From Nitrospiraceae bacterium (lineage in GTDB: Bacteria; Nitrospirota; Nitrospiria; Nitrospirales; Nitrospiraceae), in contig JBBIQV010000007.1 in the NCBI GenBank assembly GCA_037442105.1, positions 1 through 64,000 of the forward strand: 64,000 bases of DNA, read 5' to 3'. The translations under genes and the position numbers were made by a program. Below are positions 1,567 to 15,761 of the stretch, piece by piece. Position 1 is the stretch's first letter, and each line of letters opens with the position of its first letter. A model generated the notes under the pieces. That model saw only the letters and a list, made by a program, of their open reading frames with translations. It had not been told where the DNA came from and ran no database searches.

Positions 1567-3324
1567 TCATCCATAGGGCGGCAGCGTCGTCAGGCGCGTG
1601 TCCTCGACCGGTCCGCCAATCGTGAAATGGTAAAGGGATTGGAACGACAGCCCCTTGATTCCGACAATCTCATGGACCGGATCGTCGAAGAAACAGCCGA
1701 TACCGGTGCCCCTCACTCCTGCAGCCTCCGCTTCGAGATACAGGACCTGCCCCAGCAGGCCAGCTTCCCAGTAAAGACGTGGATACCACCAAGCTCCCTC
1801 TTGCCGCAAGCGTCCATCGAATTCGGCGATCATGCCGAGCGAAAAGGCACTGTCCCCGGCAATCTCCTGGTGGCAACTGACCTGAGCCGCCGCCTTCCTC
1901 GCATCACCTTCGAACAACCAATACAGTGGGAGGTCCTCCGGACAGTCCGGCGCTGGAGCCCAATTCAGTTCGTCATTCATGGATCGTTGCAACAGCGGCA
2001 ACTTTTTTAGATCGCGGACCAGGAAATAAATGCCCGGCGTCAAACCGTCTACCCGATGGACGAACAACATCAGATGAATGGCCGGCTCCCAGGGCAACAC
2101 ATCCCACGGCATCGGCCGGTCCAATTGAGGTAGATCCACACGGGCCATCACTTTCTGCATCATTCGAAAGAAGGTCGAGGAGGGGATCGACGTCTTTCCG
2201 TTGAACGCCACGGCGCTCCGACGTTGCCTGATTACTTGTCCAGCGGTTAGTTTTCGCCCTTCACCCCCATCCTCTCCCCGCTGGGGAGAGGGAAGGGAGA
2301 GGGCGAGCGCAACAGTAGGCTTGTCGGTCTGTGTCTTCCAAGAGGCTTTGGCCGCTTCGTCGATGATATCCCAATGGACCCCGTGCTCACGACTCAGCCG
2401 ATTCGCCTTCCCATGCCACGGCATACCAGCAAGATCTTTCACGACCAGTGGATCGAGAAACAACGGCAGCTCGCCCACTTCAGACCGATTGACGTTTGAC
2501 GAATGACGGATGACGCCGTCTCTGGGCCAGACGATAGCCAAACAGTCAGGATGTTCAGGCTCCGCCTCGCGAAAGTCGTCGGTACGATGAGTGCCCAACA
2601 GCTTCGCAGTCGTGTCTTGGGAAACGCCGTCCAGCAGCGTCATGGTCCAGCCGAGCGTCGCAGCCGCGATCCGTGCCGTTCCAATCGCATGGCCCACGTC
2701 ATGGTTGCAGTAGCGAAACGCACGTTCCCCGTACTTCCACGCTTCCCGCCAATGAATCGAGGTGAGGCCAAACAGAAATGCACCAGGAGGAAATGGAGCC
2801 AGCAGACAAGCGGTTTGTTCGGCAGGGAACTCAGCTCGCAATTCCAATCCATGCTCCTTGGGAGCGTAATGGTAGAGGCCTGAAGGGAGATCGAGGCCTT
2901 CGATCTTGGGCAGCACCAGATAACCTTCGGTCGGATGGAGATTGCCGGACGAGGGATTGCTGCGCAGCGCCCATTGCGTGTTTCCAACCCGTTTCCACGC
3001 CGACAGGGCCAGCCCAAATTCGAGAAACCGCGAGAACGTCGGTACCGTGACCGGCTGGACCGGCACTACTCCCCGCTGGTAGATCGCGTCATACGGCGGA
3101 GAGACCGGCCCGTCATCCGGTTTCAGAAGCGGCAGCGAAAAGAATGGAGCCCCGTCGAAACGGCGAAATGGATCAGGCTGGTTGGCCCAATCCATGTGTC
3201 CAAGAGAACGGGCATACCGGTAGAAATGATGCTTGGTCTGGAGATGATAATGGATCACCCGTTCAATCGGGTCCGCCGGTACAGGCTCGGCTGCCGCTGC
3301 AGGAAGATAACCGTCGGTGCTCAT
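1567..3324 (-). CDS. SagB/ThcOx-family nitroreductase-like dehydrogenase (two FMN-binding domains)
   Basis: YHxxTKH, LRSNPSSGNLHPTEGY, WREAWKYGERAFRYCNHDVGHA, IRQRRS, GIGCFFDD; start placed at MSTDG (3324). Confidence 0.88.
   Translation of the reverse strand: MSTDGYLPAAAAEPVPADPIERVIHYHLQTKHHFYRYARSLGHMDWANQPDPFRRFDGAPFFSLPLLKPDDGPVSPPYDAIYQRGVVPVQPVTVPTFSRFLEFGLALSAWKRVGNTQWALRSNPSSGNLHPTEGYLVLPKIEGLDLPSGLYHYAPKEHGLELRAEFPAEQTACLLAPFPPGAFLFGLTSIHWREAWKYGERAFRYCNHDVGHAIGTARIAAATLGWTMTLLDGVSQDTTAKLLGTHRTDDFREAEPEHPDCLAIVWPRDGVIRHSSNVNRSEVGELPLFLDPLVVKDLAGMPWHGKANRLSREHGVHWDIIDEAAKASWKTQTDKPTVALALSLPSPQRGEDGGEGRKLTAGQVIRQRRSAVAFNGKTSIPSSTFFRMMQKVMARVDLPQLDRPMPWDVLPWEPAIHLMLFVHRVDGLTPGIYFLVRDLKKLPLLQRSMNDELNWAPAPDCPEDLPLYWLFEGDARKAAAQVSCHQEIAGDSAFSLGMIAEFDGRLRQEGAWWYPRLYWEAGLLGQVLYLEAEAAGVRGTGIGCFFDDPVHEIVGIKGLSFQSLYHFTIGGPVEDTRLTTLPPYG
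2257..2303. repeat. REP-like palindromic element inserted in frame in the SagB-family gene
   Basis: Hairpin CCTCTCCCC-GCT-GGGGAGAGG (2271-2291) within CCCTTCACCCCCAT...GGAAGGGAGAGGG; encodes LPSPQRGEDGGEG. Confidence 0.7.
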
Positions 3325-3583
3325 TGTAATGATACCTGCCAGTCTAGCGGGCCGGGGGAAGGGAAGTAAATGCGGCGCTGAACCCTTCCGGCAAGAACTT
3401 AACCGCTCGCGGTAATTCTTGCCCATGTCCCCTGCCCCCCGCGATCGCCCACGCTCACCCGTTCCCACCCTGCCCCCGTTCCTGGACAGTTCGCAAGCAT
3501 CTGCTACCTTTGAAAAGTCGCGGTTCTGATCCGATGTTTCTCAACATTGCATATACGTGAACGCTTTATGGCACGGCTATCGC

Positions 3584-4190: not shown

Positions 4191-4988
4191 ATGAGACACT
4201 GGAACTCACGCATGACAAACAGCGCGGGCGGTCGAATGCGGAACATGCCGTCTTGGCGCGATCGGGTCGTGTGGGCCGTCCTCCTCCTCATTCTTCCGGC
4301 CATGCCGGGATGCGCCCGCTGGACCGAGCTGTCCGACCGTTCGTACGTCGAGGAGAAGGCAGGTACCATCTCCATTGCAGCCGATGAACGAGTCCCCGTC
4401 ATTTTGAGCACAGTCCAGGTGAGCCAGAATGGGACGCCGGTCACTACGCCGGCCGAGTTCGAACAGCGGGTTCTGAACCTGCTACAAGACACGAATCTTT
4501 TTTCGCAACTGTTTCACGCCGGCTATACTCAGCCGGCGGAGGGACACAAATTTCTGACTGCCCGGTTATCCATACAGGAAACCGTTGATCCGCACCCGGG
4601 TGAGGCGGCGTGGAAAGGGTTCCTGATCAGCGCCTCGATGTTTCTCCTCGCTCCCGCAATTGCCCTTGAATACGAATACGGTGCGGAGATGACCTTGGAG
4701 ATGGAACGATGGGACGGCGCAATCAAGCACTACCGGGCCGCCTCGAACGGCGCCGCCTTTTATTACCTGTTCGGGGCGACGCCCCTGGCGGTCCAGGAAT
4801 TGAAGGGACAGGTGATCGACGCCTGCTTCACGGCTCTCGTCCAACAGGTCGTCCAAGACACGAATCACTATATGGCCAGCAGCGCGCCTGTGCCGGACAC
4901 AACCGTCCGGATGATTGCCGTGAAAGCCAAGACCGCAGCCCCGAGGATTTTGCCCGTCTCGACCATGCTTGAGCCCCCTATGCAGTGA
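4191..4988 (+). CDS. Hypothetical lipoprotein
   Basis: Hydrophobic stretch ending in lipobox-like MPGC; true start probably 4236 or 4245. Confidence 0.7.
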   Translation: MRHWNSRMTNSAGGRMRNMPSWRDRVVWAVLLLILPAMPGCARWTELSDRSYVEEKAGTISIAADERVPVILSTVQVSQNGTPVTTPAEFEQRVLNLLQDTNLFSQLFHAGYTQPAEGHKFLTARLSIQETVDPHPGEAAWKGFLISASMFLLAPAIALEYEYGAEMTLEMERWDGAIKHYRAASNGAAFYYLFGATPLAVQELKGQVIDACFTALVQQVVQDTNHYMASSAPVPDTTVRMIAVKAKTAAPRILPVSTMLEPPMQ

Positions 4989-5109
4989 CAACGCTCTCCT
5001 CTGAGATTTTGTGTTTCCTACTTCTCAATTCAGTCCCTCTCATCTCTCAATTTCCATCTGGCCGAACCGCCGTGCGCAGTGCTAGGATAGCGTTCCGCTG
5101 AGACCTGAG

Positions 5110-5310
5110 ATGCATCTCGACGAAGCCAGACGGCGGATTGAATCGGCGATGACCCAGTACGGCCGGCAAGCCGGAATGGCGATCGATCTCGTCATCAACG
5201 ACGTGCGGTCGGATCTCGGCGCAAAAGCCGTGAACGAGCTCATCGAGGAATTCGACTTGGAGCTGCTCTACAACATCGCGCCGATGGAATCGGACCACTC
5301 CAACTTTTGA
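5110..5310 (+). CDS. Small hypothetical protein (66 aa)
   Basis: Helical acidic ORF with normal codon usage, co-oriented with the downstream gene. Confidence 0.65.
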   Translation: MHLDEARRRIESAMTQYGRQAGMAIDLVINDVRSDLGAKAVNELIEEFDLELLYNIAPMESDHSNF

Positions 5311-5331
5311 TTCTCCAGGACGCCCTCGCAC

Positions 5332-6414
5332 GTGCCGCTCATCTGGTGTTCCATTTCCGGCCACGGCTTCGGCCATGCAGCACAGGTGGTGCCGGTGCTG
5401 AACGAACTGGCCCAACGAGTTCCCAACCTCAAGGTTATCCTGCGGACCACGGTTCCGCCATCCTTCTTTGCAGACCGTCTTCAGATGAACTGGGAGTTGA
5501 GTGCCGTCCAGCAGGACATCGGGTGCGTCCAGGACGGGCCATTGGCGATCGATGTCCGTGGGACATGGTTCGCGCACCAACGGTTCCACGAACAGTGGGA
5601 GACGAAGGTGCGAGAAGAAATGCAGGCCATTCAGGCCAGCCGGCCGACCGTGGTATTGTCGAATATCGCTTATCTCGCTATCGAGGCGGGGAACACAGCG
5701 CAGATTCCGACCGTGGCGTTAAGCAACCTGTCATGGGACTGCATCCTGGAGCTGCTGCATGAGCCGGGGAATGCGGAGCAGCGCGCGATCATTCAACACA
5801 TTCGACGTTCCTATGCCTTTGCTGATCGGATGCTGCGCCTTGCTCCGGCACTACCGATGTCCGCATTCAAAAAGCTCACCGACATCGCCCCTATCGCTCA
5901 ACCTGTCTCCTCTGAACGGACCTTGGTCAGAGAGATGATTAGGGCCGGCTCACAAGAACGGCTGGTCTTGGTCGGATTCGGCGGGGTTCCTCTCCGTTCG
6001 TTACCGCTCGATCGTATGGAGTCCATGAAGGGGTACCGGTTTCTTGTCGATGGAACCGTCCCAGCCTCCTTCAACCGTGTCCAATCCATGCGCACCCTGC
6101 CGTTTCGCTTCGGCGCCCTGCTCGCTTCAGCCGACCTCATCATGACTAAGCCCGGCTATGCCACTCTTGTCGAAGCGGTCGCCCAGCAGAAACCGGTGGT
6201 CTACGTCCGCCGGCACAATTTTGCCGACGAGCAATCGTTGGTCGATTACCTTCACCGGTATGGGCGAGGAGCGGAGCTCAAGATGGATAATTTCGTTGCC
6301 GGCCGGTGGGAGGACGCGCTGGAGCAGGCGTGGGCTGAGCCGTTACCATCGCAAGATCCGCCGGCACTGTCCGGCGCGCAGGAGACCGCAGCGGTGCTGG
6401 CAGAATATTTCTAG
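5332..6414 (+). CDS. GT-B fold glycosyltransferase-like protein
   Basis: ISGHGFGHA N-terminal motif; LVGFGG, ADLIMTKPGYATLVEA and F.DE C-terminal motifs. Confidence 0.8.
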   Translation: MPLIWCSISGHGFGHAAQVVPVLNELAQRVPNLKVILRTTVPPSFFADRLQMNWELSAVQQDIGCVQDGPLAIDVRGTWFAHQRFHEQWETKVREEMQAIQASRPTVVLSNIAYLAIEAGNTAQIPTVALSNLSWDCILELLHEPGNAEQRAIIQHIRRSYAFADRMLRLAPALPMSAFKKLTDIAPIAQPVSSERTLVREMIRAGSQERLVLVGFGGVPLRSLPLDRMESMKGYRFLVDGTVPASFNRVQSMRTLPFRFGALLASADLIMTKPGYATLVEAVAQQKPVVYVRRHNFADEQSLVDYLHRYGRGAELKMDNFVAGRWEDALEQAWAEPLPSQDPPALSGAQETAAVLAEYF

Positions 6415-6446
6415 CGGTCAAGTTGCGAAGAAGCTGAGGTCATCTC

Positions 6447-7253
6447 GTGCGTGTCGCCGGGTACTTGCTGCACCTGCTCGCCAAGTGGCTCGACGCGATC
6501 GGCAGTCTCTTCTTGCGGGTTGCCACGCTGTTGAACAACCTGTTGCCGGCATTGCTGTCTCCTGCCGATCTCATGAAGTTGATCAAGCAACACTATGAAA
6601 GGACTTACGCCCACGCTGCGCCACAGCTCACATCGGATGTTTACGACTGGACGCTGGAGAGCTGGGAGTTGGAAACGATCGAGCGGCATGGCATCGTCTC
6701 CGGCCGCATATTGGTACTAGGGGCGGGGGTCGGACGAGAGGCCATCGCCCTAGCGCAACGCGGGCTCACCGTGGTGGGGCTGGATGCGAACGGCATGGCC
6801 TTGCAAGTCGCAACGAAGACCGCCAGAACCTTGCAAATTCCTGCCCAGTTTGTGCAGGCGGACTTCCTTCGGTTGCCGTTCGCGTCCGTGCCTTTTCGGT
6901 ACGCCATCATGTCCGGCATCATGTACAGTGCCGTTCCAGGGCGGGCCCGGAGGCTGGCCTGGCTGGCCGACCTTGCGCGCGCTCTTGCACCAGGAGGGTT
7001 GGCTCTCCTCAACTTCCTTATCGACCAGCATCCGCCATCCAGAACGCAGCGGATAAGCCACGCGGCGAACCGGATTCTTGTTAGACTCCCAGGCGCAAAC
7101 CGTTCCTACCAAGCAGGCGATACCTGCGCGCAGAGCCATTTTCTGCATGCCTTCCGAGACGAATCCGAAATTCGGGAAGAATTGGAGCAAGCCAGCGTCC
7201 TGATTCAAGAGCTGAACTGGAGAAAAGGGTTCGCGGTCATCTCCTTTCCTTAA
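6447..7253 (+). CDS. Class I SAM-dependent methyltransferase
   Basis: Motif I ILVLGAGVGRE, then VVGLD, FVQADF and LAPGG. Confidence 0.85.
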   Translation: MRVAGYLLHLLAKWLDAIGSLFLRVATLLNNLLPALLSPADLMKLIKQHYERTYAHAAPQLTSDVYDWTLESWELETIERHGIVSGRILVLGAGVGREAIALAQRGLTVVGLDANGMALQVATKTARTLQIPAQFVQADFLRLPFASVPFRYAIMSGIMYSAVPGRARRLAWLADLARALAPGGLALLNFLIDQHPPSRTQRISHAANRILVRLPGANRSYQAGDTCAQSHFLHAFRDESEIREELEQASVLIQELNWRKGFAVISFP

Positions 7254-7289
7254 AGAAGGTCGTAGCAAACAGCACACGGCGCGCGGCGA

Positions 7290-7465
7290 ATAGCTCCATC
7301 AGCAAACAGCTAATAGCGAGCAGCCAGTAGCTTCAGACAGGCGGCCCGGAGCTTCACAGTTCTAGGCTATTCGCTATTAGCTATCAGCTATTTGTTCTGC
7401 TCGAGAGCTATACGAAGGCCGCTCTGGGCTTCCGGCTATCGGCTATCAGCTATTCGCTATCAGCT
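7290..7465. repeat. Heptamer tandem arrays (AGCNAAT / GCTATNN), inverted arms, upstream of the RiPP cluster
   Basis: AGCAAAC AGCTAAT AGCGAGC AGCCAGT ... GCTATTC GCTATTA GCTATCA GCTATTT ... GCTATCG GCTATCA GCTATTC GCTATCA. Confidence 0.8.
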
Positions 7466-7522
7466 TGGTCCTCTGAAATAGCTCTGGAAGGGCTTTCGGG
7501 GATTTGTTATCCTCACAGCGCC

Positions 7523-7816
7523 ATGGCGCCTGGCTCCATCTATAAGAAGAACCCCGACTTCGTACAGCGCGATGTCGCCGGGGAATGTATCCTGGTGCCG
7601 ATCCGCCGGCAACTCACCGACGTGAACAGCATCTATGTCTTGAACGAAACCGGTGCATCGCTGTGGAACCGCATTGACGGCCAACGTTCCACCAAGCAAA
7701 TCATGACGGACTTCTGTGAGGAGTTTGAAGTCAGCCTCGACCAATTGACGCAAGATTTCACCACACTGCTCAACGATCTTCTCTCGATCAACGCCATCGA
7801 GGAGGTCGTGCCGTGA
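7523..7816 (+). CDS. PqqD-family RiPP recognition element (RRE), stand-alone
   Basis: 97 aa: R.VAGE.ILVP, IYVLNETGASLWNRIDG, EF.V......D...LL..L typical of PqqD/RRE. Confidence 0.92.
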   Translation: MAPGSIYKKNPDFVQRDVAGECILVPIRRQLTDVNSIYVLNETGASLWNRIDGQRSTKQIMTDFCEEFEVSLDQLTQDFTTLLNDLLSINAIEEVVP

Positions 7817-7819
7817 CCG

Positions 7820-8731
7820 ATGGTTGAACGATATCAGCTACACCGCCTTCCCGACCGTTACCCCCTCTCCTGTCAGTGGGAGATAACCTGCCGTTGCAAC
7901 CTGCGCTGCGTGATGTGCTACACGGACTGCCTCAACCGCCCGGACAAGATTCGAGAGGAACTCGCCACACACGAAGTCCTCCGCATCATGGACGAACTGG
8001 GCAAGGCAGGTTGCCTCGAATTGTGCCTCACCGGAGGCGAACCGCTGGCACGACCGGATTTTTTCATCCTCTACGAGCAGGCGGTCAAGAGCGGGTTTCT
8101 GGTCACGCTCTTCACCAACGGAACACTGATCACGGAAACGGTGGCCGACCGGTTCACGCATTTCCCGCCCCATCGGATTGAAATCAGCCTTCATGGTGTG
8201 AACGAGCACACGTTTGAGACCGTGACCCAAACGCACGGCTCCTATCAGCGCTGCGCGGCTGCCATCAGGTTGCTCCGTGACCGCCGCCTGCCGCTCGTAC
8301 TGAAAACGACCGCCATGACTCTCAACCGCCGGGAAATCCTGGACATCAAGCGCTACGTTCAAGGTCTGGGTTCGGTCGGATACAAATTGGGTGAGGAGCT
8401 GCGCCCGGCACTCGACGGGACTGATGGCCCGCTCCGATTCGGTCTCCCGCCCGAGGACTTGAACGATCTCAATCGCGAGGACCCGCAGTTGTGGCAAGAG
8501 ACCTGCCGGAAGCAGAGCGCGCCGGCTCCGCCCTGCCGGAGCGGCATGCGCTCCTTCCATATCGACGCCTACGGATTCCTGCAGTTGTGTTCAGGGAATC
8601 GAAATCAGGGCTATGACCTGCGCAACGGGTCCTTCGAGGAAGGGTTCTACGAGTACCTGCCGGCCTTCGGCTGTCGATGGAAAGTGGACGCAACACCTGT
8701 CTTGCTTCACCCCAGCGTGACTCATGCCTGA
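7820..8731 (+). CDS. Radical SAM protein 1 (short, Twitch-like C-terminus)
   Basis: CNLRCVMC (CxxxCxxC), LTGGEPL, TNG, ISLHG; C-terminal CRSG..FHIDAYG..QLC with no CxxCxxxxxC. Confidence 0.92.
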   Translation: MVERYQLHRLPDRYPLSCQWEITCRCNLRCVMCYTDCLNRPDKIREELATHEVLRIMDELGKAGCLELCLTGGEPLARPDFFILYEQAVKSGFLVTLFTNGTLITETVADRFTHFPPHRIEISLHGVNEHTFETVTQTHGSYQRCAAAIRLLRDRRLPLVLKTTAMTLNRREILDIKRYVQGLGSVGYKLGEELRPALDGTDGPLRFGLPPEDLNDLNREDPQLWQETCRKQSAPAPPCRSGMRSFHIDAYGFLQLCSGNRNQGYDLRNGSFEEGFYEYLPAFGCRWKVDATPVLLHPSVTHA

Positions 8732-9857
8732 ACCACGCGTGCTTCCCACGATGGAGTACCGGGACTTCAGCCGACACGTCCATGACCGCGCAGCCGCTCG
8801 CCGGCATGTGATCAAGGCGCAGATGGAACTGACCTACCGCTGCAACCTTCATTGCCGCCATTGTTATACCGACCCGTACAACGGCAAAGCATGGCTCCCG
8901 CGCGAGCTGAGCCTGGCGGAGCTCATACGTCTCATAGATGAGATGGCTGATCTCGGCATCATGTGGCTCAACCTGACCGGCGGGGAAATTTTTCAACATC
9001 CACATTTCTGGACCATCTACGACCATGCCTACCGCCGAGGCTTTCTCTTGCAGCTCTATACCAACGGCACCCTCTTCACGAGAGGCATCGTCGAGCGGCT
9101 CCGGCAGACCCCACCGTTCACCATCGACATCTCGTGCCATTCCGTGAATGAAGAACGTTTCGACTGGTTCACGCAGGTTCCCGGCTCGTTCCGAGCCTTC
9201 TCACGAGGGCTGGAATTGTTGAAAGACAGTGGCCTGCCCTTCACGTTCAAAACCAAAGCCATGAATTGGAACAGGGACGAGATGCCGCAAATCAAGCAGT
9301 TCGTGGAATCGTTCGGACGGCGTTTCGGATTCACGACGTCGCTCTCGCCTCGGCTCAACGGCGATCTGTCTTCGCTCGGTTATCGTTTGGCTCCGGAAGC
9401 TGTTGTCGCTTTGCAACGAGAGGAACAACAGGCCGACGGGGAGGAGGAAAGCTGCGGTTTGTCCACTGACTTGCTGCCCCCTGCGACTGACCGGCTCTAT
9501 CGTTGCGGCTGTGGCACGGATACGATCCACATCAACGCCTGGGGCGAGCTCGGCACCTGTACCTTGCAATATGAGCGGCGTGTGTCGCTCCGCGAACATG
9601 CGCTCGGCGAAGCCATCGACAGCCTGTTTCGCAATATCAGGGCGATGCACTATCGGACCGAGTCTCCCTGCCGCACCTGCGACATCTATTCGTTCTGTGA
9701 GAAAACACCCTCGGATGCGCGCTGGGAGTGCGACGACGCCGAGGCCCCGATCCCTTATGATTGCAATGTCGCCCACGCGCGCGCGGAGTCCACGTCGCAT
9801 CAAACACTGATTCATCCGCTCCGCAGGACGTCCCATGGAAAGAGGACCCTTGCATGA
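8724..9857 (+). CDS. Radical SAM/SPASM protein 2
   Basis: CNLHCRHC, LTGGE, TNG; SPASM-like CGCG..INAWGELGTC ... CRTCDIYSFC ... YDC. Confidence 0.93.
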   Translation: MPEPRVLPTMEYRDFSRHVHDRAAARRHVIKAQMELTYRCNLHCRHCYTDPYNGKAWLPRELSLAELIRLIDEMADLGIMWLNLTGGEIFQHPHFWTIYDHAYRRGFLLQLYTNGTLFTRGIVERLRQTPPFTIDISCHSVNEERFDWFTQVPGSFRAFSRGLELLKDSGLPFTFKTKAMNWNRDEMPQIKQFVESFGRRFGFTTSLSPRLNGDLSSLGYRLAPEAVVALQREEQQADGEEESCGLSTDLLPPATDRLYRCGCGTDTIHINAWGELGTCTLQYERRVSLREHALGEAIDSLFRNIRAMHYRTESPCRTCDIYSFCEKTPSDARWECDDAEAPIPYDCNVAHARAESTSHQTLIHPLRRTSHGKRTLA

Positions 9858-10048
9858 CTGAGAAGAAACCATATTGCCCACCGCAACTCTTCCGCGTCGA
9901 ACTGAGCCAGGAACAGGCTATTTTGAGTGCCTGCAGCCTGATGTCCTCAAATCCAGCAGCCGGCGGGCTGGATCTGTATTGCCGGAGGGGCGGCTGTAAG
10001 CGGGCAACTTTCATGAGCATGTCCGACAGCGGGCTGCGGCCATCGTAA
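9854..10048 (+). CDS. Putative RiPP precursor peptide A1 (64 aa)
   Basis: MTEKKPYCPPQLFRVELSQEQAILSACSLMSSNPAAGGLDLYCRRGGCKRATFMSMSDSGLRPS; AGAGGA RBS; ATGA overlap with the rSAM2 stop; paralog follows. Confidence 0.88.
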   Translation: MTEKKPYCPPQLFRVELSQEQAILSACSLMSSNPAAGGLDLYCRRGGCKRATFMSMSDSGLRPS

Positions 10049-10065
10049 GCAGAAAAGTGGAAGCT

Positions 10066-10260
10066 ATGAGAATGAAGAAACCTTACAACGTGCCGCAACT
10101 GTTTCAAGTGGATTTAATGCATGAACAAGCTATTCTCAGTGCCTGCAGCTTGACCGCAGTGAACCCCCAGACAGGCGGTCTTGATCTCGCCTGCAGACCG
10201 CGCGGATGCAAGAAAGACAAAGATCCGAGAAAAGGGGACAGCGGCATGCGTCCCTCATAA
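10066..10260 (+). CDS. Putative RiPP precursor peptide A2 (64 aa)
   Basis: MRMKKPYNVPQLFQVDLMHEQAILSACSLTAVNPQTGGLDLACRPRGCKKDKDPRKGDSGMRPS; gapless alignment to A1 with 39/64 identities (start could be 10072). Confidence 0.88.
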   Translation: MRMKKPYNVPQLFQVDLMHEQAILSACSLTAVNPQTGGLDLACRPRGCKKDKDPRKGDSGMRPS

Positions 10261-10283
10261 AGGGCTCATGGCCGGTGAGCATC

Positions 10284-11186
10284 ATGTCTATCGATCTCCA
10301 CATCGCCGGGTTCAGAATTCGGCTTGATGAACCTTCCGGCGTTGCCCGTCTCGGCTGGCCATTGCGCCCTTTCGACCGATTCAGGGATCAGAGTGACATG
10401 CCTCCCGATATCGTCGCGCGCGTGACGGTGACAAAGGCTCTTCCCACCCATCCGAAAGGCCTTTTGCGTTTCGACGCGTGCCACGGCCTCTGGCAACTGT
10501 ATGAGACCGATGCCGGTTTGCTACTGGAAACTCTGGACACCAAAACTCACCAACCCTACAGCCGCTCTCTCATTAACGAAGACTTTTCGCGGATAGATGT
10601 CTGGACGCTTGGGGAAGAGATGAGCACGGCGTACGGCTGGGTTCCGATGAAAATCTTCAACCCCGTGATCGAAGTGTGCCTCCTCACCAGACTCGCGCGT
10701 GAGGGAGGGCTCCTCCTTCACTCGGCAGGGGTTCTTTCACGCAGAGGAGGCCATATCTTCACCGGCGCCTCGGGGACCGGCAAATCGACTCTGTCCAGCT
10801 TCTTTGCCGAGCGTGGCGCATCGGTGCTCAGCGATGAGCGCATGATCATCCGAAAGAACGGAGCTTCTTTTGTTGCTCACGGTACCCCGTGGGTCGGGAG
10901 CGGCGCCTACGCGAAGAACGAGTCCGGACCTGTGACGGGGCTGTTTTGTATTCGTCAGGCACAACGGCATCACACCGAAGCCCTGTCACCCGGTGCCGCC
11001 CTGTCTTTTATTCTCCCGCAATGTTTTCTTCCGCATTGGGACCGAACCGCAATGGAAGCCACGCTGGCGTTCCTCGGCGATCTTGTCCTGCATGTTCCCT
11101 GTAAGAGTCTGGCATTTGCCAAACACCCCGACGTTATCGATTTCGTCCACGACCAGCTCGCGTCAACAGCACTGGTGACATCATGA
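10284..11186 (+). CDS. HPr-kinase-like P-loop protein (putative peptide kinase)
   Basis: LLHSAGV, FTGASGTGKSTL (Walker A), VLSDE and GTPW motifs; start 10284 follows GGTGAG. Confidence 0.8.
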   Translation: MSIDLHIAGFRIRLDEPSGVARLGWPLRPFDRFRDQSDMPPDIVARVTVTKALPTHPKGLLRFDACHGLWQLYETDAGLLLETLDTKTHQPYSRSLINEDFSRIDVWTLGEEMSTAYGWVPMKIFNPVIEVCLLTRLAREGGLLLHSAGVLSRRGGHIFTGASGTGKSTLSSFFAERGASVLSDERMIIRKNGASFVAHGTPWVGSGAYAKNESGPVTGLFCIRQAQRHHTEALSPGAALSFILPQCFLPHWDRTAMEATLAFLGDLVLHVPCKSLAFAKHPDVIDFVHDQLASTALVTS

Positions 11187-12241
11187 ACAAGCTGGATGCC
11201 GGCGAGTTTCTGGAATCGCTTTCGACGAAAGCCGCTGCCTGTCGCCATCCAGAAAGCGTGACTTTTGAGCTGACGTACGGCTGCAACCTCCGGTGCCTCC
11301 ACTGCTACAACCCCACTCATCGCGTGTTGCCTCATGAACTGACGACTGTCGAGATCTACTCGATTCTGGACCAACTCGCAGACTTCGGCGTACTCAATGT
11401 CACATTTTCGGGCGGTGAACCGTCGATCCGTCCCGATATCGTTCAGATCCTGCGCCACGCACGCTCTCGTGGTCTCATGATCCAACTTCTGACCAACGCA
11501 ACGCGCATCACCCCTTCCTTCGCCGAACTCTTGGGCGAGGTCGGCATTGCACAGATCAACGTATCCATCTACGGCGCCTCCGAGACCACATATGAACACA
11601 TGACCGGTATCCCGGGCTCCTACACGGCATTCGCCCAGGGCCTCCGATGCCTTGCCGTTCACGGCCTCCCCATCACTGTCCGCATGCCGGTCACGACCGT
11701 GAACCAGGGAGACCTGGTTGCTTGCCGCGCACTGGTCGAAAACCACGGCTTCAAATTTCAATATTGTCTGGACGTGACGCCCAAAACGGATGGCGATTGC
11801 ACTCCGCTGCAGTACCGATTGAGTCCGCAGGAGAAGCACCGCATCGATCACACTCTGCTGCCGCATCTTGCGGATGTCTCGAACGAGGATTCGTGCTCGT
11901 CTCGCTCGACGTTCATCTCCTGCGCCTGTGGGAAGAACCGCTTCGCCATCACCCCCTATGGCGAGATGAATCTCTGCGTCGCCTTTCCGATTCCCAAGTA
12001 CGACCTCCGCGCAGGCACGGTCAGGGCCGGTTGGGAGCTGTTGAAGCGAACGGTAGACCACGCCGCTCCGAACGAACACGACCAGTGCCCCGCCTGCGAG
12101 GGTTACTCCTATTGCCGCCAGGGCCGGAGCGATGCGTGGCTCGAAACCGGCGATATGAGCCGCTGCTTGCCTCACTTCAAGGAATGGGCCTTCTTGGAGA
12201 AACAGTCCCATGCCCTCCTTCACCCTCGACGATCTCGTTGA
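11183..12241 (+). CDS. Radical SAM/SPASM protein 3
   Basis: CNLRCLHC, FSGGEP, TNA, VSIYG; CACG..AITPYGEMNLC ... CPACEGYSYC; ATGA-coupled to the kinase. Confidence 0.93.
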   Translation: MNKLDAGEFLESLSTKAAACRHPESVTFELTYGCNLRCLHCYNPTHRVLPHELTTVEIYSILDQLADFGVLNVTFSGGEPSIRPDIVQILRHARSRGLMIQLLTNATRITPSFAELLGEVGIAQINVSIYGASETTYEHMTGIPGSYTAFAQGLRCLAVHGLPITVRMPVTTVNQGDLVACRALVENHGFKFQYCLDVTPKTDGDCTPLQYRLSPQEKHRIDHTLLPHLADVSNEDSCSSRSTFISCACGKNRFAITPYGEMNLCVAFPIPKYDLRAGTVRAGWELLKRTVDHAAPNEHDQCPACEGYSYCRQGRSDAWLETGDMSRCLPHFKEWAFLEKQSHALLHPRRSR

Positions 12242-13184
12242 ATCCTATGTGCGCGTCAGTTCGCTCAACCACCGGGCGCTGGACCGCTTCGTGGAGATCG
12301 GCGCGCAGCTCCGCCGGCACGGGATCGACTTCCTGGTTCTGAAAGGCGCGGACCTGCTGTCCCGTCTCTATGGGACCAGAGGGACACGACCGATGACGGA
12401 TGTCGATTTGCTGGTTCACGAGCCGGACCTTCCGCTCATCGACCATCTACTCACCGAATGCGGCTATGCGCAAGAGATCGACGGCAATCCGGCCTACCGC
12501 TCACCGGACGGGAGCCTTTTGCTGGATATCACCTGTGACCTTTGGTACCTGGACCAGGCAGGCCTGGATGCGGTCTGGCGACACGCCATTCAGCGAACGA
12601 TCCACGAGCTTCCCATCCGCTGCATGGGCACGGACGACCTCGTGCTGTATCTGACTGCTTATGCCGTCATCCATCGCGGCGCGTGCTCCACGCCATTCGC
12701 CGGAGACCTTGCCCTGGTGACGAAACGGGAGTCGGTGAACTGGGAGTCTGTCTGCAAACAAGCCGCTCGATGGAACCTGAAAGTTCCTGTGTATCACGGG
12801 CTCTCATACCTGCAACCCCTGCAAACCGGGCAGCCGCAACTTGCCATCCCGCCCAAAGCGCTGGCCGATCTTGCCCCCGTGACCTTCGGCGAACGATGGC
12901 TGCTCCGTTTTCTGCGCAAGGCGGTGACCGACAAGCCGATCACCAACCTCGGACATCTGCTTCTGCTCCTGACGCGGCCGGCCGGTACCAGGTGGCCGTG
13001 GTTGAAACGAACGTTTTTCCCATCGCCTGCGTTTCTTGGGTACCGATACGGCTCCGTCAGCCAACGTCATCCCATCCGAACCAGGCTGATGCGCATCCTG
13101 TCGCTTGGCTTCCAAGCCTGTCTGCTGGCAGGACGGCTCGGCGTCATGTTGTGCACATCGACAGCGCAAAGGCTTCCTCGATGA
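12210..13184 (+). CDS. Nucleotidyltransferase family protein (NTP_transf_5-like)
   Basis: LVLKGADL..RLY....RPMTDVDLLV signature; later H and DL motifs. Confidence 0.88.
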   Translation: MPSFTLDDLVESYVRVSSLNHRALDRFVEIGAQLRRHGIDFLVLKGADLLSRLYGTRGTRPMTDVDLLVHEPDLPLIDHLLTECGYAQEIDGNPAYRSPDGSLLLDITCDLWYLDQAGLDAVWRHAIQRTIHELPIRCMGTDDLVLYLTAYAVIHRGACSTPFAGDLALVTKRESVNWESVCKQAARWNLKVPVYHGLSYLQPLQTGQPQLAIPPKALADLAPVTFGERWLLRFLRKAVTDKPITNLGHLLLLLTRPAGTRWPWLKRTFFPSPAFLGYRYGSVSQRHPIRTRLMRILSLGFQACLLAGRLGVMLCTSTAQRLPR

Positions 13185-13216
13185 TTCACTACGCCACGAT
13201 GATTCACTACGCCACG
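13181..13216 (+). repeat. Perfect 18-bp tandem duplication at the peptidase start
   Basis: ATGATTCACTACGCCACG x2, encoding MIHYAT-MIHYAT. Confidence 0.9.
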
Positions 13217-13996
13217 GGCCTCGTTCGCAGCCAGAAGTGGGGGACTGCCGATCGGCTCACCGGCCACGACCTGCTCCCCATTCTCCGGCACACCAGGCTT
13301 CTGGTGTCTTCATGGAGCATGTTTCCGACGATCCGCAAGGGTGACTACATTGAACTCGACCACGCATGCGAGGTGAACGTCGGCGACATCGTGGTCTACC
13401 GCCAATGCGGCGCGCTCGTCTGCCATCGCGTGAGATCGCTCACCCAGGACGGGCTCGTCATCACAGGCAGCGAGGACATGGCCACAGGCACGGACGCGGT
13501 TTTTCGGCGAGACATCATCGGTCGCGTGACCTGGATCATTCGAGGCCGCCGACGATTCGCGCCGGCGCATGGTATGCCGCCTACTCTGATGGCCTGCTTG
13601 CGCCGTCGCTTCGACCAATATCGCGCGTCCTATTCGAACAAGGCGCGATCGATCGCCGCCGCGATTCTGGCAGGTCTCACCCGGCGTCGAATTCCTCATC
13701 GCCTGCTGTCCAGGTTGTTCCTGAGTTGTCTCCGCTTCCGCATCATGGCAAAGATGCCGATCGAGTCGATCCCTGCCTACGACTTAGCCGACAATCCGAT
13801 CTGGTCCCACGGAACACGCCGTACCTCTATCCGGGTCCGTAAGATCGCAACAAGAGAGCGCCTCATCGTCTGTGCATACCTCGGGTCTCACCTCGTGGGC
13901 AGTGTGGACTTACGTTCAGGGGAGCAACGATTGCACCCGCTGATCGGCGGGCTCGGCCTAGAACTCTACTTTGCGGATCTGACGCATCTTCAATAG
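13181..13996 (+). CDS. S24/S26-family (signal-peptidase-like) peptidase, candidate leader peptidase
   Basis: SWSMFPTIRKGD (catalytic Ser box), VGDIVVY, VCHRV, DIIGRV; ATGA overlap with the upstream stop. Confidence 0.78.
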   Translation: MIHYATMIHYATGLVRSQKWGTADRLTGHDLLPILRHTRLLVSSWSMFPTIRKGDYIELDHACEVNVGDIVVYRQCGALVCHRVRSLTQDGLVITGSEDMATGTDAVFRRDIIGRVTWIIRGRRRFAPAHGMPPTLMACLRRRFDQYRASYSNKARSIAAAILAGLTRRRIPHRLLSRLFLSCLRFRIMAKMPIESIPAYDLADNPIWSHGTRRTSIRVRKIATRERLIVCAYLGSHLVGSVDLRSGEQRLHPLIGGLGLELYFADLTHLQ

Positions 13997-14139: not shown

Positions 14140-14745
14140 ATGGAAACCGCGCCTCGATACGCCGCATCGACGATCGATCCCAAGCTCTTGGCCCGCGTGG
14201 CCAAGGGCGACCAGCAGGCGTTCAGTCAGCTTTACGACCAATCGAGTGCGTTGCTGTACACCCTGGCCCTCCGCATCCTAAGCAACCGCGAGGAGGCCGC
14301 TGAGCTGTTACAGGAAGTGTATCTGGAGGTCTGGCGGAAGATCGCACGGTATGACGTTGGGCGAGGTACTCCTATCGCCTGGCTCGTGACACTCACACGC
14401 AGCCGGGCCCTCGATCGCCTGCGCTCACGAGCTGCGAAGGAACCCAACCATACGGCGACGCCGCTCGACGTCTCCTCGGCAGCTCAGGTTCCCGATCACG
14501 GGCCCAGCCCGTTCGAGTCGCACGCCGATATCGAAATGAGGACGTTAGTGACGAGCGCGCTGGCGGAACTCCCTGCCGCCCAGCAAGAAGCCATCGAAAT
14601 GGCTTACTACGAAGGACTGTCGCATACGGAAATCGCCGCGCGTCTGAATCAGCCGTTGGGCACCGTGAAGACGCGGATCAAACTCGGACTCACCAAGCTC
14701 CGAGCCGCGTTACGCAGCACCTGGGAACAGGGCGAGGCATCATGA
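14140..14745 (+). CDS. ECF sigma-70 factor (SigK-like)
   Basis: GDQQAFSQLYD, AELLQEVYLEVW, WLVTLTRSRALD, YYEGLSHTEIA..L..PLGTVKTRI. Confidence 0.93.
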   Translation: METAPRYAASTIDPKLLARVAKGDQQAFSQLYDQSSALLYTLALRILSNREEAAELLQEVYLEVWRKIARYDVGRGTPIAWLVTLTRSRALDRLRSRAAKEPNHTATPLDVSSAAQVPDHGPSPFESHADIEMRTLVTSALAELPAAQQEAIEMAYYEGLSHTEIAARLNQPLGTVKTRIKLGLTKLRAALRSTWEQGEAS

Positions 14746-15761
14746 CCCACGAAGAACTCGAAGAAGCGATCCCTTTATACGCGGTCGGTGCCATCGAGCG
14801 GCCGGAACGCCAGGTTCTGGAAGCCCATCTCTTGTCCGGCTGTGCGACTTGCCATGCAGCGTTGAAAGAATGCCAAGCCGTGGCGGCCGCGATCCCATTT
14901 GGCTTGTCTCCGGTGGCGCCTCCCCGCACACTCAAGGCCAAGATTATGGCGGCTCGCGATCCGGCCTCCATCCCGACGGAGGTCGTGCGGCAGCCAAATA
15001 AACCATCGCTCGAGCCGGGAGAGTGGATGAAACACCTCTTTCCCCCGGTTGCCCCCGCGCGATCCATACCCTTCCGCTTCGCGCTTGGTTTCGCGGCTCT
15101 CGCGCTCGTAACCGGGATCGGCTACTTCATATGGTCGTACACTTCCCGAATGGCTGAAGAATCGAGAAAACTCGAACAACTCCAGGCAACGCTCCAGAAG
15201 GAAAGCGCACAGCTTGCGGCGCTCCGCAGGAACCTCACCGAGCGCGACCAGTCGATTGCGCAATTACGCGATGAACTCCAGCAACGCACCGGCGAGATCG
15301 CCGACCTCCGAGACACCGTGATCCGCCGGGAAGCGGAGTTGGACGATGCCCGCCTTCAGTTGGCCCAGCGCGACGCTGCGGCCCTGCGAAGGGCCAAGTC
15401 CCAACAGGAAGAAATCGCTGCTTTGCTTCGATTGCCCGGCGTGAAAGTCGCCTCACTAACCGGTGCGGAGATGGCAAAAAGCGCCGGAGCCGTCGTGCTC
15501 TTCGACCCTGGGACCGGCAAGGCCTGGCTGTATGCCTACAATCTTCCCTTGCTCCCTGTCGGAAAGGTGTATCAGTTGTGGGTCATCGACGACAAACCGG
15601 TGAGTGCCGGCACGTTCTTCCTCGATGTGGGTCAAAAGGGCCGGCTGATGGTGAAGAATCTTCCCGATCTCTCCCACGCCAAGAAGTTCGCCGTGAGCGT
15701 GGAACCGGCTGGTGGCCGCCCCCAACCGACCGGCGCCATCTATCTCGTCGGGCAACTGTAA
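14742..15761 (+). CDS. Anti-sigma factor, RskA-like, with long coiled-coil
   Basis: N-terminal HLLSGCATC zinc motif, one TM, C-terminal YQLW..PVSAG..FAVSVEP.GG..QPTG; ATGA-coupled to the sigma factor. Confidence 0.88.
   Translation: MTHEELEEAIPLYAVGAIERPERQVLEAHLLSGCATCHAALKECQAVAAAIPFGLSPVAPPRTLKAKIMAARDPASIPTEVVRQPNKPSLEPGEWMKHLFPPVAPARSIPFRFALGFAALALVTGIGYFIWSYTSRMAEESRKLEQLQATLQKESAQLAALRRNLTERDQSIAQLRDELQQRTGEIADLRDTVIRREAELDDARLQLAQRDAAALRRAKSQQEEIAALLRLPGVKVASLTGAEMAKSAGAVVLFDPGTGKAWLYAYNLPLLPVGKVYQLWVIDDKPVSAGTFFLDVGQKGRLMVKNLPDLSHAKKFAVSVEPAGGRPQPTGAIYLVGQL

Follow-up and report, generated by a model that had tools for sequence, protein, structure and literature searches.

The window analysed here, a stretch of 64,000 nucleotides from contig JBBIQV010000007.1 of a Nitrospiraceae bacterium, holds between positions 6447 and 13996 ten genes on the + strand, which form a real and conserved system of Nitrospira-type bacteria and which, judged by their sequences, almost certainly specify a pathway to a ribosomally synthesised peptide with post-translational modifications (RiPP) dependent on a RiPP recognition element (RRE). 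It opens with a class I S-adenosylmethionine (SAM)-dependent methyltransferase (6447..7253; PF13649, 5e-13), followed across an intergenic stretch by a stand-alone PqqD/B1-like RRE (7523..7816; PF05402, 4e-14), two radical SAM (rSAM) enzymes (rSAM1, 7820..8731, and rSAM2, 8724..9857), two precursor peptides (9854..10048 and 10066..10260), an HprK-like kinase (10284..11186, 300 residues from the ATG at 10284), a third radical SAM enzyme (rSAM3, 11183..12241), an NTP_transf_5 nucleotidyltransferase resembling PsmN and LppN (12210..13184; PF14907, 5e-27) and a putative signal-peptidase-I (SpI)-like S24/S26 leader peptidase with a truncated GNAT-like C-terminal part (13181..13996; Peptidase_S24, 2e-5). 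An earlier note on this DNA had described nine of these co-oriented open reading frames (ORFs) and their 4-base overlaps at 9854, 11183 and 13181, all of which were verified, and had missed the methyltransferase. Pfam gave Radical_SAM (PF04055) matches in three genes, only weak P-loop matches in the kinase and none in either peptide, while the cut-offs of the NCBIfam models scanned (the SynChlorMet, GeoRSP and HprK-rel models among them) were reached by none of the nine ORFs. For the RRE, precursors, kinase, NTP transferase and peptidase, the genome (87% complete) yielded no further copies.

With rSAM1 as query (E<=1e-30), matches were found in 12 of 36 genomes of the same family and in none of 24 other genomes of the order, and each of the 12 has all three radical SAM enzymes; the kinase was found in 20 of the 75 family genomes of a 401-genome phylum sample. 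Comparison of all 12 rSAM1-positive loci with 18 further family loci located via the kinase (G006 being one row in each family tally, with no claim depending on it alone) showed that, where contigs permit, the genes follow one another as methyltransferase, RRE, rSAM1, rSAM2, between one and three precursors, kinase, rSAM3, NTP transferase and peptidase; L031 and L032 are variant loci that depart from it. Among the best 80 of 526 public records, those holding the closest relatives of rSAM1 carry the names Nitrospira or Nitrospiraceae, and three rSAM1-relative records from other phyla were examined (L101, L103 and L109). Because the gene order recurs in same-family loci and a profile made from the precursor alignment A1, described below, finds 289 precursor-like proteins among 812 candidates, the cluster is not a chance one. 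It is vanishingly improbable that the genes are a chance assembly and the small ORFs something other than substrates, given that precursor homologues lie within the cluster at every intact locus examined, across three phyla and with residue-level conservation.

The methyltransferase occurs in exactly the 12 family genomes that hold the radical SAM trio and lies immediately 5' of the RRE in 26/26 standard-order loci with upstream DNA (the L061 copy has an internal stop). Homologues accompany the cluster, at other positions, in Acidobacteria and Elusimicrobia records (31% and 28% identity), and in another family a homologue with 46-48% identity stands at the head of an RRE-B2-cyclase lasso cluster. 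The co-occurrence, the fixed adjacency to the RRE and the homologues in other phyla and in a lasso cluster together indicate that 6447-7253 is a peptide-tailoring gene of the system. Its predicted fold (pLDDT 92) gave only generic class I matches (best TM score 0.5-0.58), CypM ranked second in the searches without a clear margin, and no match to the PIMT family was found. This methyltransferase family, at L154:3-1780 (G055) and L153:3981-5150 (G050), heads a lasso cluster with an RRE, a B2 above cut-off and the start of a cyclase, and is a candidate for a new lasso-tailoring methyltransferase; at G030:C260 (L032, L155) four tandem methyltransferase copies and two arginase-TPR genes precede one cluster.

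The two 64-residue peptides, which the earlier note rightly took for paralogues, are 61% identical and are conserved beside homologous enzymes. Both have a YxxP leader, the pairs C27-S28, C43-R44 and C48-K49, and a C-terminal DSGxRxS64. An alignment of 39 intact precursor copies from 29 loci (A1) is invariant at Y7, P10, L17, Q21, A22, L24, C27, C43, C48 and the final S64, S28 being replaced by Thr in 2/39 rows, and the leader consensus after YxxPxL runs FRVxLxQEQAILSACS. Five copies were left out, namely four truncated or frameshifted ones (L025b, L028b, L030a and L057) and one, in L063, that the pattern did not pick up, in which the Cys-Lys pair and C-terminal Ser are present and the leader is partly doubled. 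The broken copies, which are the second in L025 and L028 and the first in L030, together with that of L057, suggest turnover of duplicated precursor genes. A larger alignment of 121 rows (A10, the best 120 profile matches plus peptide 1) is also invariant at S28, K49 and R62, and in it K49, R62, D58 and G60 are conserved to the same degree as the Cys residues, this conservation being partly by construction as the rows were chosen by the A1 profile. Longer precursors have two additional Cys, which occur jointly in 12/12 rows (the L032 row has a single extra one), and since these come together and the base number of Cys is odd, the simplest reading is that the extra pair would form a disulfide on top of three otherwise modified Cys.

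A simpler form of the system is found in other families of the phylum, from which 22 of 32 kinase matches were compared. It consists of an RRE, one radical SAM enzyme, one precursor, the kinase and usually a short peptidase; precursors were identified in 19 of these one-rSAM cassettes by pattern (alignment A2) and in one more by hand, and one further was found within the class of G437. The one-rSAM precursors are homologous to those of the window (hhalign 97%, E 4e-11) and have three invariant Cys with a single fixed Cys-X pair, which is Cys-Lys in 19/19; no meaningful NCBIfam match was obtained for any of the 39 A1 and 19 A2 precursors. On these sequence comparisons the window system is an elaborated form of a one-rSAM cassette widespread in the phylum, and the radical SAM trio, with pairwise identities of 29-36%, may have arisen by triplication of a single enzyme. 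The earlier note had proposed a novel hybrid of lasso-type tailoring and radical SAM chemistry on a cross-linked scaffold; radical SAM maturases are indeed joined to a kinase/nucleotidyltransferase pair in a conserved RRE operon, yet this is not a one-off architecture, and the cross-linking of the scaffold is something we infer from the enzymes.

The "lasso-type" label for the tailoring enzymes is better replaced by that of an LPP-type toolkit. LPP (linear polyphosphorylated peptides; Popov et al. 2026) is the nearest described family, and its core, as given in the available part of that paper, is an SpI-like peptidase, a stand-alone RRE, a kinase resembling HprK, an NTP transferase plus an MsbA-like exporter (PMC13381572); all but the last of these are present in the cluster. 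The best PDB matches of the window RRE are lasso B1 proteins and LppB (TbiB1 and LppB 9x8z), and its D78, which does not vary in 41 rows, is aligned to D70 of LppB, the residue that according to the same source binds the tyrosine of YxxP (PMC13381572). The kinase, with HprK 1jb1 among its best PDB matches (E 1e-4) and 35 bits against a cut-off of 200 for HprK_rel_B, has H146, K167 and D184 invariant in 26 rows, keeping the His, Lys and Asp of the lasso-kinase His-Lys-Asp-Asp motif with Glu in the last place. D64 and D66 of the NTP transferase, present in 28/28, form the DxD pattern described as essential in PsmN in passages of PMC6993621 and PMC9266682. In the peptidase (TIGR02228 40 bits against a cut-off of 51.85, and 58 bits in a relative) the catalytic Ser and His-Arg are invariant in 27/27 rows, as in LppS. 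The window system also shares with LPP the archaeal-type character of this peptidase (Ser/His/acid), one to three precursors and the lack of a macrolactam cyclase. It differs from LPP, which is found in Bacillota, in its Nitrospirota host, in the addition of three radical SAM enzymes and a methyltransferase (neither "radical SAM" nor "rSAM" appears in the main text of the LPP paper), in having no MsbA-like exporter between 6447 and 13996 or in the adjacent genes scanned, in a leader that shares only YxxPxL of the LPP motif YxxPxVLxHQxIxFETxxS and lacks HQxIxFET, and in having three Cys and a C-terminal Ser that do not vary, where LPP C-termini are variable.

The signal-peptidase-like call in the earlier note thus stands with two amendments. 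The protein's C-terminal part has no Pfam match and aligns with the full GNAT domains of relatives (S24-GNAT fusions at L031:13442-14431, L047:10241-11275 and L050:8623-9618), of which the window keeps a remnant; such fusions suggest that leader cleavage may be coupled to acetylation in some relatives. In addition, an 18-bp tandem duplication at 13176-13211, which close-strain contigs from runs X2 and X3 (apparently one data set) do not have, doubles the peptidase start, for which 13199 is the likely position. By analogy with LppS, the leader is likely to be removed by this peptidase, with about an even chance that the cut falls after I23-L24-S25. A prediction of the complex of RRE, leader and peptidase scored 0.01 against a mark of 0.32 and carries no weight either way.

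From the same analogies (PadeK/PsmK for the kinase and PsmN for the transferase) it is very probable that the kinase acts on a Ser and that the NTP transferase then caps it. Ser64 is clearly favoured over Ser28 as the kinase site because only Ser64 is retained across both cassette types and all phyla (39/39 A1 rows, 18/19 A2 rows with Thr in the other, and all three other-phylum precursors). If the system were instead LPP proper with added radical SAM enzymes, the kinase would polyphosphorylate Ser28, as core residue 3 after I-L-S|A-C-S, and not the C-terminal Ser; in the accessible text on LPP the leader has F-E-T at its end and phosphorylation takes place at S3 only (PMC13381572). The RRE, kinase, SpI-like peptidase and NTP transferase common to both systems fit this alternative, as do the invariance of S28 across A10 and the match of I23-L24-S25|A26-C27-S28 to the LPP pattern of a hydrophobic residue at -3, a small one at -1 and Ser at +3. 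For the match, however, three residues have to be inserted (Tyr lies at -19, not -16), two A1 rows have Thr and L109 has Glu in place of S28, LppK is reported in the same part of that paper not to have accepted S3T (PMC13381572), and the one-rSAM precursors have no Ser equivalent to S28 yet share the same kinase and C-terminal Ser, so that we regard this alternative as unlikely.

All three radical SAM calls of the earlier note held, with the amendment that rSAM1 has a shortened Twitch-type C-terminal domain and not a full SPASM domain. Its auxiliary cluster I would be coordinated by three Cys (C239, C257 and C285, in 25/25), compared with eight conserved C-terminal Cys in each of the other two enzymes. 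In rSAM2 these are C261, C263, C279, C316, C319, C325 and C347 (29/29) and C244 (27/29), without the canonical fourth Cys after CX2CX5C; in rSAM3 they are C247, C249 and C265 (31/31), C302, C305, C311 and C328 (30/30) and C238 (30/31). Both have thus lost one canonical Cys and gained a CxC and a linker Cys. The single-rSAM relatives have seven SPASM Cys, and in AlbA and CteB this number goes with an open site. The AlphaFold model of rSAM1 (pLDDT 83.7) gave the sactisynthase SkfB 6efn as top Foldseek match at 22% identity, and the NCBIfam models that the three enzymes match best are of heme d1/AhbD/MftC/PqqE type, with every score well short of the cut-off. SPASM/Twitch enzymes together with a Cys-containing precursor are one of the features by which sactipeptide and ranthipeptide systems are recognised, and it is reasonably likely that at least one Cys thioether is made.

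Evidence on position 49 comes from the clusters of G026, G030 and G437, which in addition encode a TPR protein bearing a peptide-arginase-like domain (PF12640 E 6e-5 and NF052474 38 bits, both below cut-off). In all three of these arginase-bearing clusters the third Cys is followed by Arg; Lys takes this place in every A10 row, in the remaining 37 rows of A1 and in the precursors of G438 and G439. No arginase-like gene was found in G438, G439, the window genome or 10 other cluster-bearing genomes of the family sample, nor in any of the 75 family genomes of the phylum sample, and distant homologues in 8/401 phylum genomes lie, in two of them, on a different contig from the cassette. Wider searching yielded no further arginase-bearing cluster with a readable precursor (three metagenome loci, one of which was examined and ends before any precursor; 1/251 genomes in the class of G437; 0/5 additional Nitrospirota genomes). 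Since ornithine made from Arg would present the primary amine that Lys has, modification at position 49 is probable. For enteropeptin the available text describes a thioether from Cys to the alpha carbon of the Arg next to it, followed by arginase and then N-methylation (PMC12703449). Arginase-like TPR genes stand beside a stand-alone RRE at L031:5291-7216, L032:1050-2783 and 4875-7043, L101:7919-9601 and L161:7938-9104; the arginase-TPR protein of L101 has an RRE fused to its C-terminus, as do, according to tblastn, those of L031 and L032.

These observations are consistent with a scheme in which the RRE, like LppB and lasso B1, would bind the YxxPxL leader and present the precursors to the enzymes. 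The three radical SAM enzymes would then form Cys thioethers, most likely one per pair (C27-S28, C43-R44 and C48-K49), because three Cys-X pairs stand beside three radical SAM enzymes here and one fixed pair beside one enzyme in the simpler cassettes; the rings may be short and enteropeptin-like, from Cys to the next residue. The kinase would phosphorylate or polyphosphorylate Ser64 and the NTP transferase cap the phosphate with a sugar or nucleotide, the methyltransferase might (this is the weakest step) target the amine at 49 (Lys, or ornithine in arginase-bearing relatives) or a peptide terminus, and the peptidase would cut off the leader. For the scheme in outline, an RRE-dependent RiPP with Cys thioethers, a phosphorylated or capped Ser and a methylated basic residue, we put the chances slightly above even. 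The assignment of one enzyme to each adjacent Cys-X ring with a methylated Lys49 is only tentative. The system is possibly a new RiPP class, although a class defined in full by three one-per-Cys thioethers (Cys-Ser, Cys-Arg and Cys-Lys/Orn), an N-methylated Lys or ornithine, a C-terminal Ser capped with a phospho-sugar or phospho-nucleotide, triplication of the one radical SAM enzyme of a cross-phylum Cys-Lys cassette and interchangeable Lys and arginase-made ornithine must be considered doubtful.

A number of points weigh against this scheme. Ser28 is, by LPP logic, an equally placed kinase site, and the invariance of Ser64 holds among intact copies, four of the five omitted copies being without a normal C-terminus, just as the A10 conservation owes something to how its rows were selected. 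Outside Nitrospira the residue after C27 is Thr (L026) or Glu (L109) and that after C43 is Lys, Gln, Asn or Ala, and the L103 precursor, from a locus with apparent frameshifts, lacks the first Cys. The arginase match is far under its cut-off (38 of 350 bits), its link to Arg comprises three genomes, two of them related, to which the wider searches added no case, and the methyltransferase has no specific structural match. The Foldseek lead is small (TM score 0.66 for SkfB against 0.63 for PqqE and 0.65 for MoaA), and function in this subfamily is described as hard to predict from sequence in the portion of PMC6231123 available. Because rSAM2 and rSAM3 have eight conserved C-terminal Cys, their auxiliary clusters may be fully ligated, and the fully ligated examples SuiB and anSME do not make thioethers. 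The radical SAM enzymes might then perform other chemistry (cross-links of C-C, C-O or C-N type, or oxidation or epimerisation affecting Lys49, Arg44, Arg62, Asp58, Gly or Ser) while the Cys form disulfides or bind metal, which would also agree with the types of the best NCBIfam models and with the conservation of K49, R62, D58 and G60, which equals that of the Cys. Three Cys, however, leave one without a partner, the extra Cys arrive paired, and rSAM1 and the single-rSAM relatives show the pattern of an unfilled auxiliary site, so we consider this alternative possible but less likely than thioether formation.

Other known systems match less well than LPP. With paeninodin and pseudomycoidin, in which the C-terminal Ser is the kinase site, the window shares the kinase His-Lys-Asp-acid motif, that Ser in the precursor, a DxD NTP_transf-type enzyme and a discrete RRE, on the passages available from PMC9266682 and PMC6993621; it differs in its lack of a lasso cyclase and B2, a kinase with Asp-Glu in place of Asp-Asp, and a Cys-rich core of about 39 residues. 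The absence of a cyclase and B2 from the earlier note's gene list extends to the 87% complete genome, where no full-length match was found (only PF00733 fragments of 53-64/354 positions and one sub-cut-off PF13471 elsewhere). As in the enteropeptin (KGR) sactipeptides, on what is available of PMC12703449 and PMC13361665, a radical SAM enzyme and a methyltransferase (and an arginase in three relatives) surround a Cys-basic pair, but here there are three radical SAM enzymes, a class I methyltransferase and not an Fe-S one, an arginase that is PF12640-like and not PF00491, none being found in the window genome, and an added kinase, NTP transferase and SpI-like peptidase; a thiomorpholine is only hypothesised here. 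SynChlorMet and GeoRSP have in common with the window a PqqD-family protein and several radical SAM/SPASM proteins, and SynChlorMet also the HprK-like ScmC, but model scans place it in neither: scores against cut-off were 23/125 bits for ScmC, 21/100 for ScmD, <=84/400 for ScmE and <=79/400 for ScmF, and 21/100 and <=77/400 for TIGR04302/TIGR04303, and the peptides matched neither the ScmA model (TIGR04252) nor the geopeptide model (TIGR04229). The literature search found no relevant paper on these two cassettes. The sactipeptide/ranthipeptide maturases SkfB and CteB share the Twitch domain with three Cys (rSAM1) and the seven-Cys SPASM (single-rSAM relatives), according to the part of PMC6231123 available, and are set apart by 18-22% identity, the stand-alone RRE here, and the CxC before the hairpin and lost later canonical Cys of rSAM2 and rSAM3. 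In agreement with the earlier note, no paper on the cluster or its product was found in the literature searched, subscription papers and supplementary tables being outside its reach, and term look-up in the available text of PMC10288494, PMC7470986 and PMC12710340 found no mention of a kinase or nucleotidyltransferase.

The lack of an exporter from 6447 to 13996 and in the adjacent genes, as the earlier note had it for the cluster (distant exporters in the genome were not searched for), fits a further alternative, in which the product is not a free peptide but a small cofactor-like fragment or a surface- or matrix-linked glycopeptide cut from the scaffold. One-rSAM cassettes at L035, L037, L039, L049 and L071 adjoin Peptidase_C25 proteins of 1300-2000 residues (5/5 giant neighbours scanned), which resemble surface proteins, several are also near polysaccharide-export genes, and LPP clusters, in the sections of the paper available, sit in capsular loci with the final product unknown (PMC13381572). 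The three-rSAM loci, on the other hand, are without Peptidase_C25 or polysaccharide neighbours, and both the spread of conserved residues over 38 core residues with variable spacers and the presence of one to three precursor copies per locus are typical of peptide products, which makes this alternative improbable.

Two upstream genes were considered as members and rejected. The glycosyltransferase at 5332-6414 is present in 30/36 family genomes, cluster-less ones included, and the SagB-like nitroreductase at 1567-3468, present in 19/22 family genomes, is a resident neighbour. The latter, on the - strand, is a two-domain protein over the SagB peptide-dehydrogenase cut-off (96 against 78 bits) with no YcaO seen nearby, and is common across the order (31/37 genomes). 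The gap between methyltransferase and RRE (7254..7522), shorter in most relatives, contains at 7264-7514 a short dispersed repeat with direct and inverted arms, of which the segment 7347-7392 recurs on other contigs in three sequencing runs, and is probably an insertion outside the pathway. A promoter and terminator scan gave counts at chance level (2 against 2.6 and 8 against 7.4). Directly downstream in most family loci, at 14140-15761 in the window, lies a pair of extracytoplasmic function (ECF) sigma and RskA-type anti-sigma factors.

What had already been described is the LPP accessory set; what appears to be new is the joining of three radical SAM enzymes and a methyltransferase to that RRE/kinase/SpI toolkit, so that the toolkit reported in 2026 is extended with radical chemistry. 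With three divergent radical SAM enzymes on one substrate, the system would allow direct study of how labour is divided among paralogous maturases, and it provides one more case in which to ask which group PF14907 NTP transferases install. Its predictions are made at the level of residues (C27, C43, C48, K49, and S28 against S64) and are directly testable. About a third of the sampled family genomes (12/36 by the radical SAM enzymes, with the kinase in 20/75) carry this iron-sulfur-rich pathway, for which we found no description of a product.

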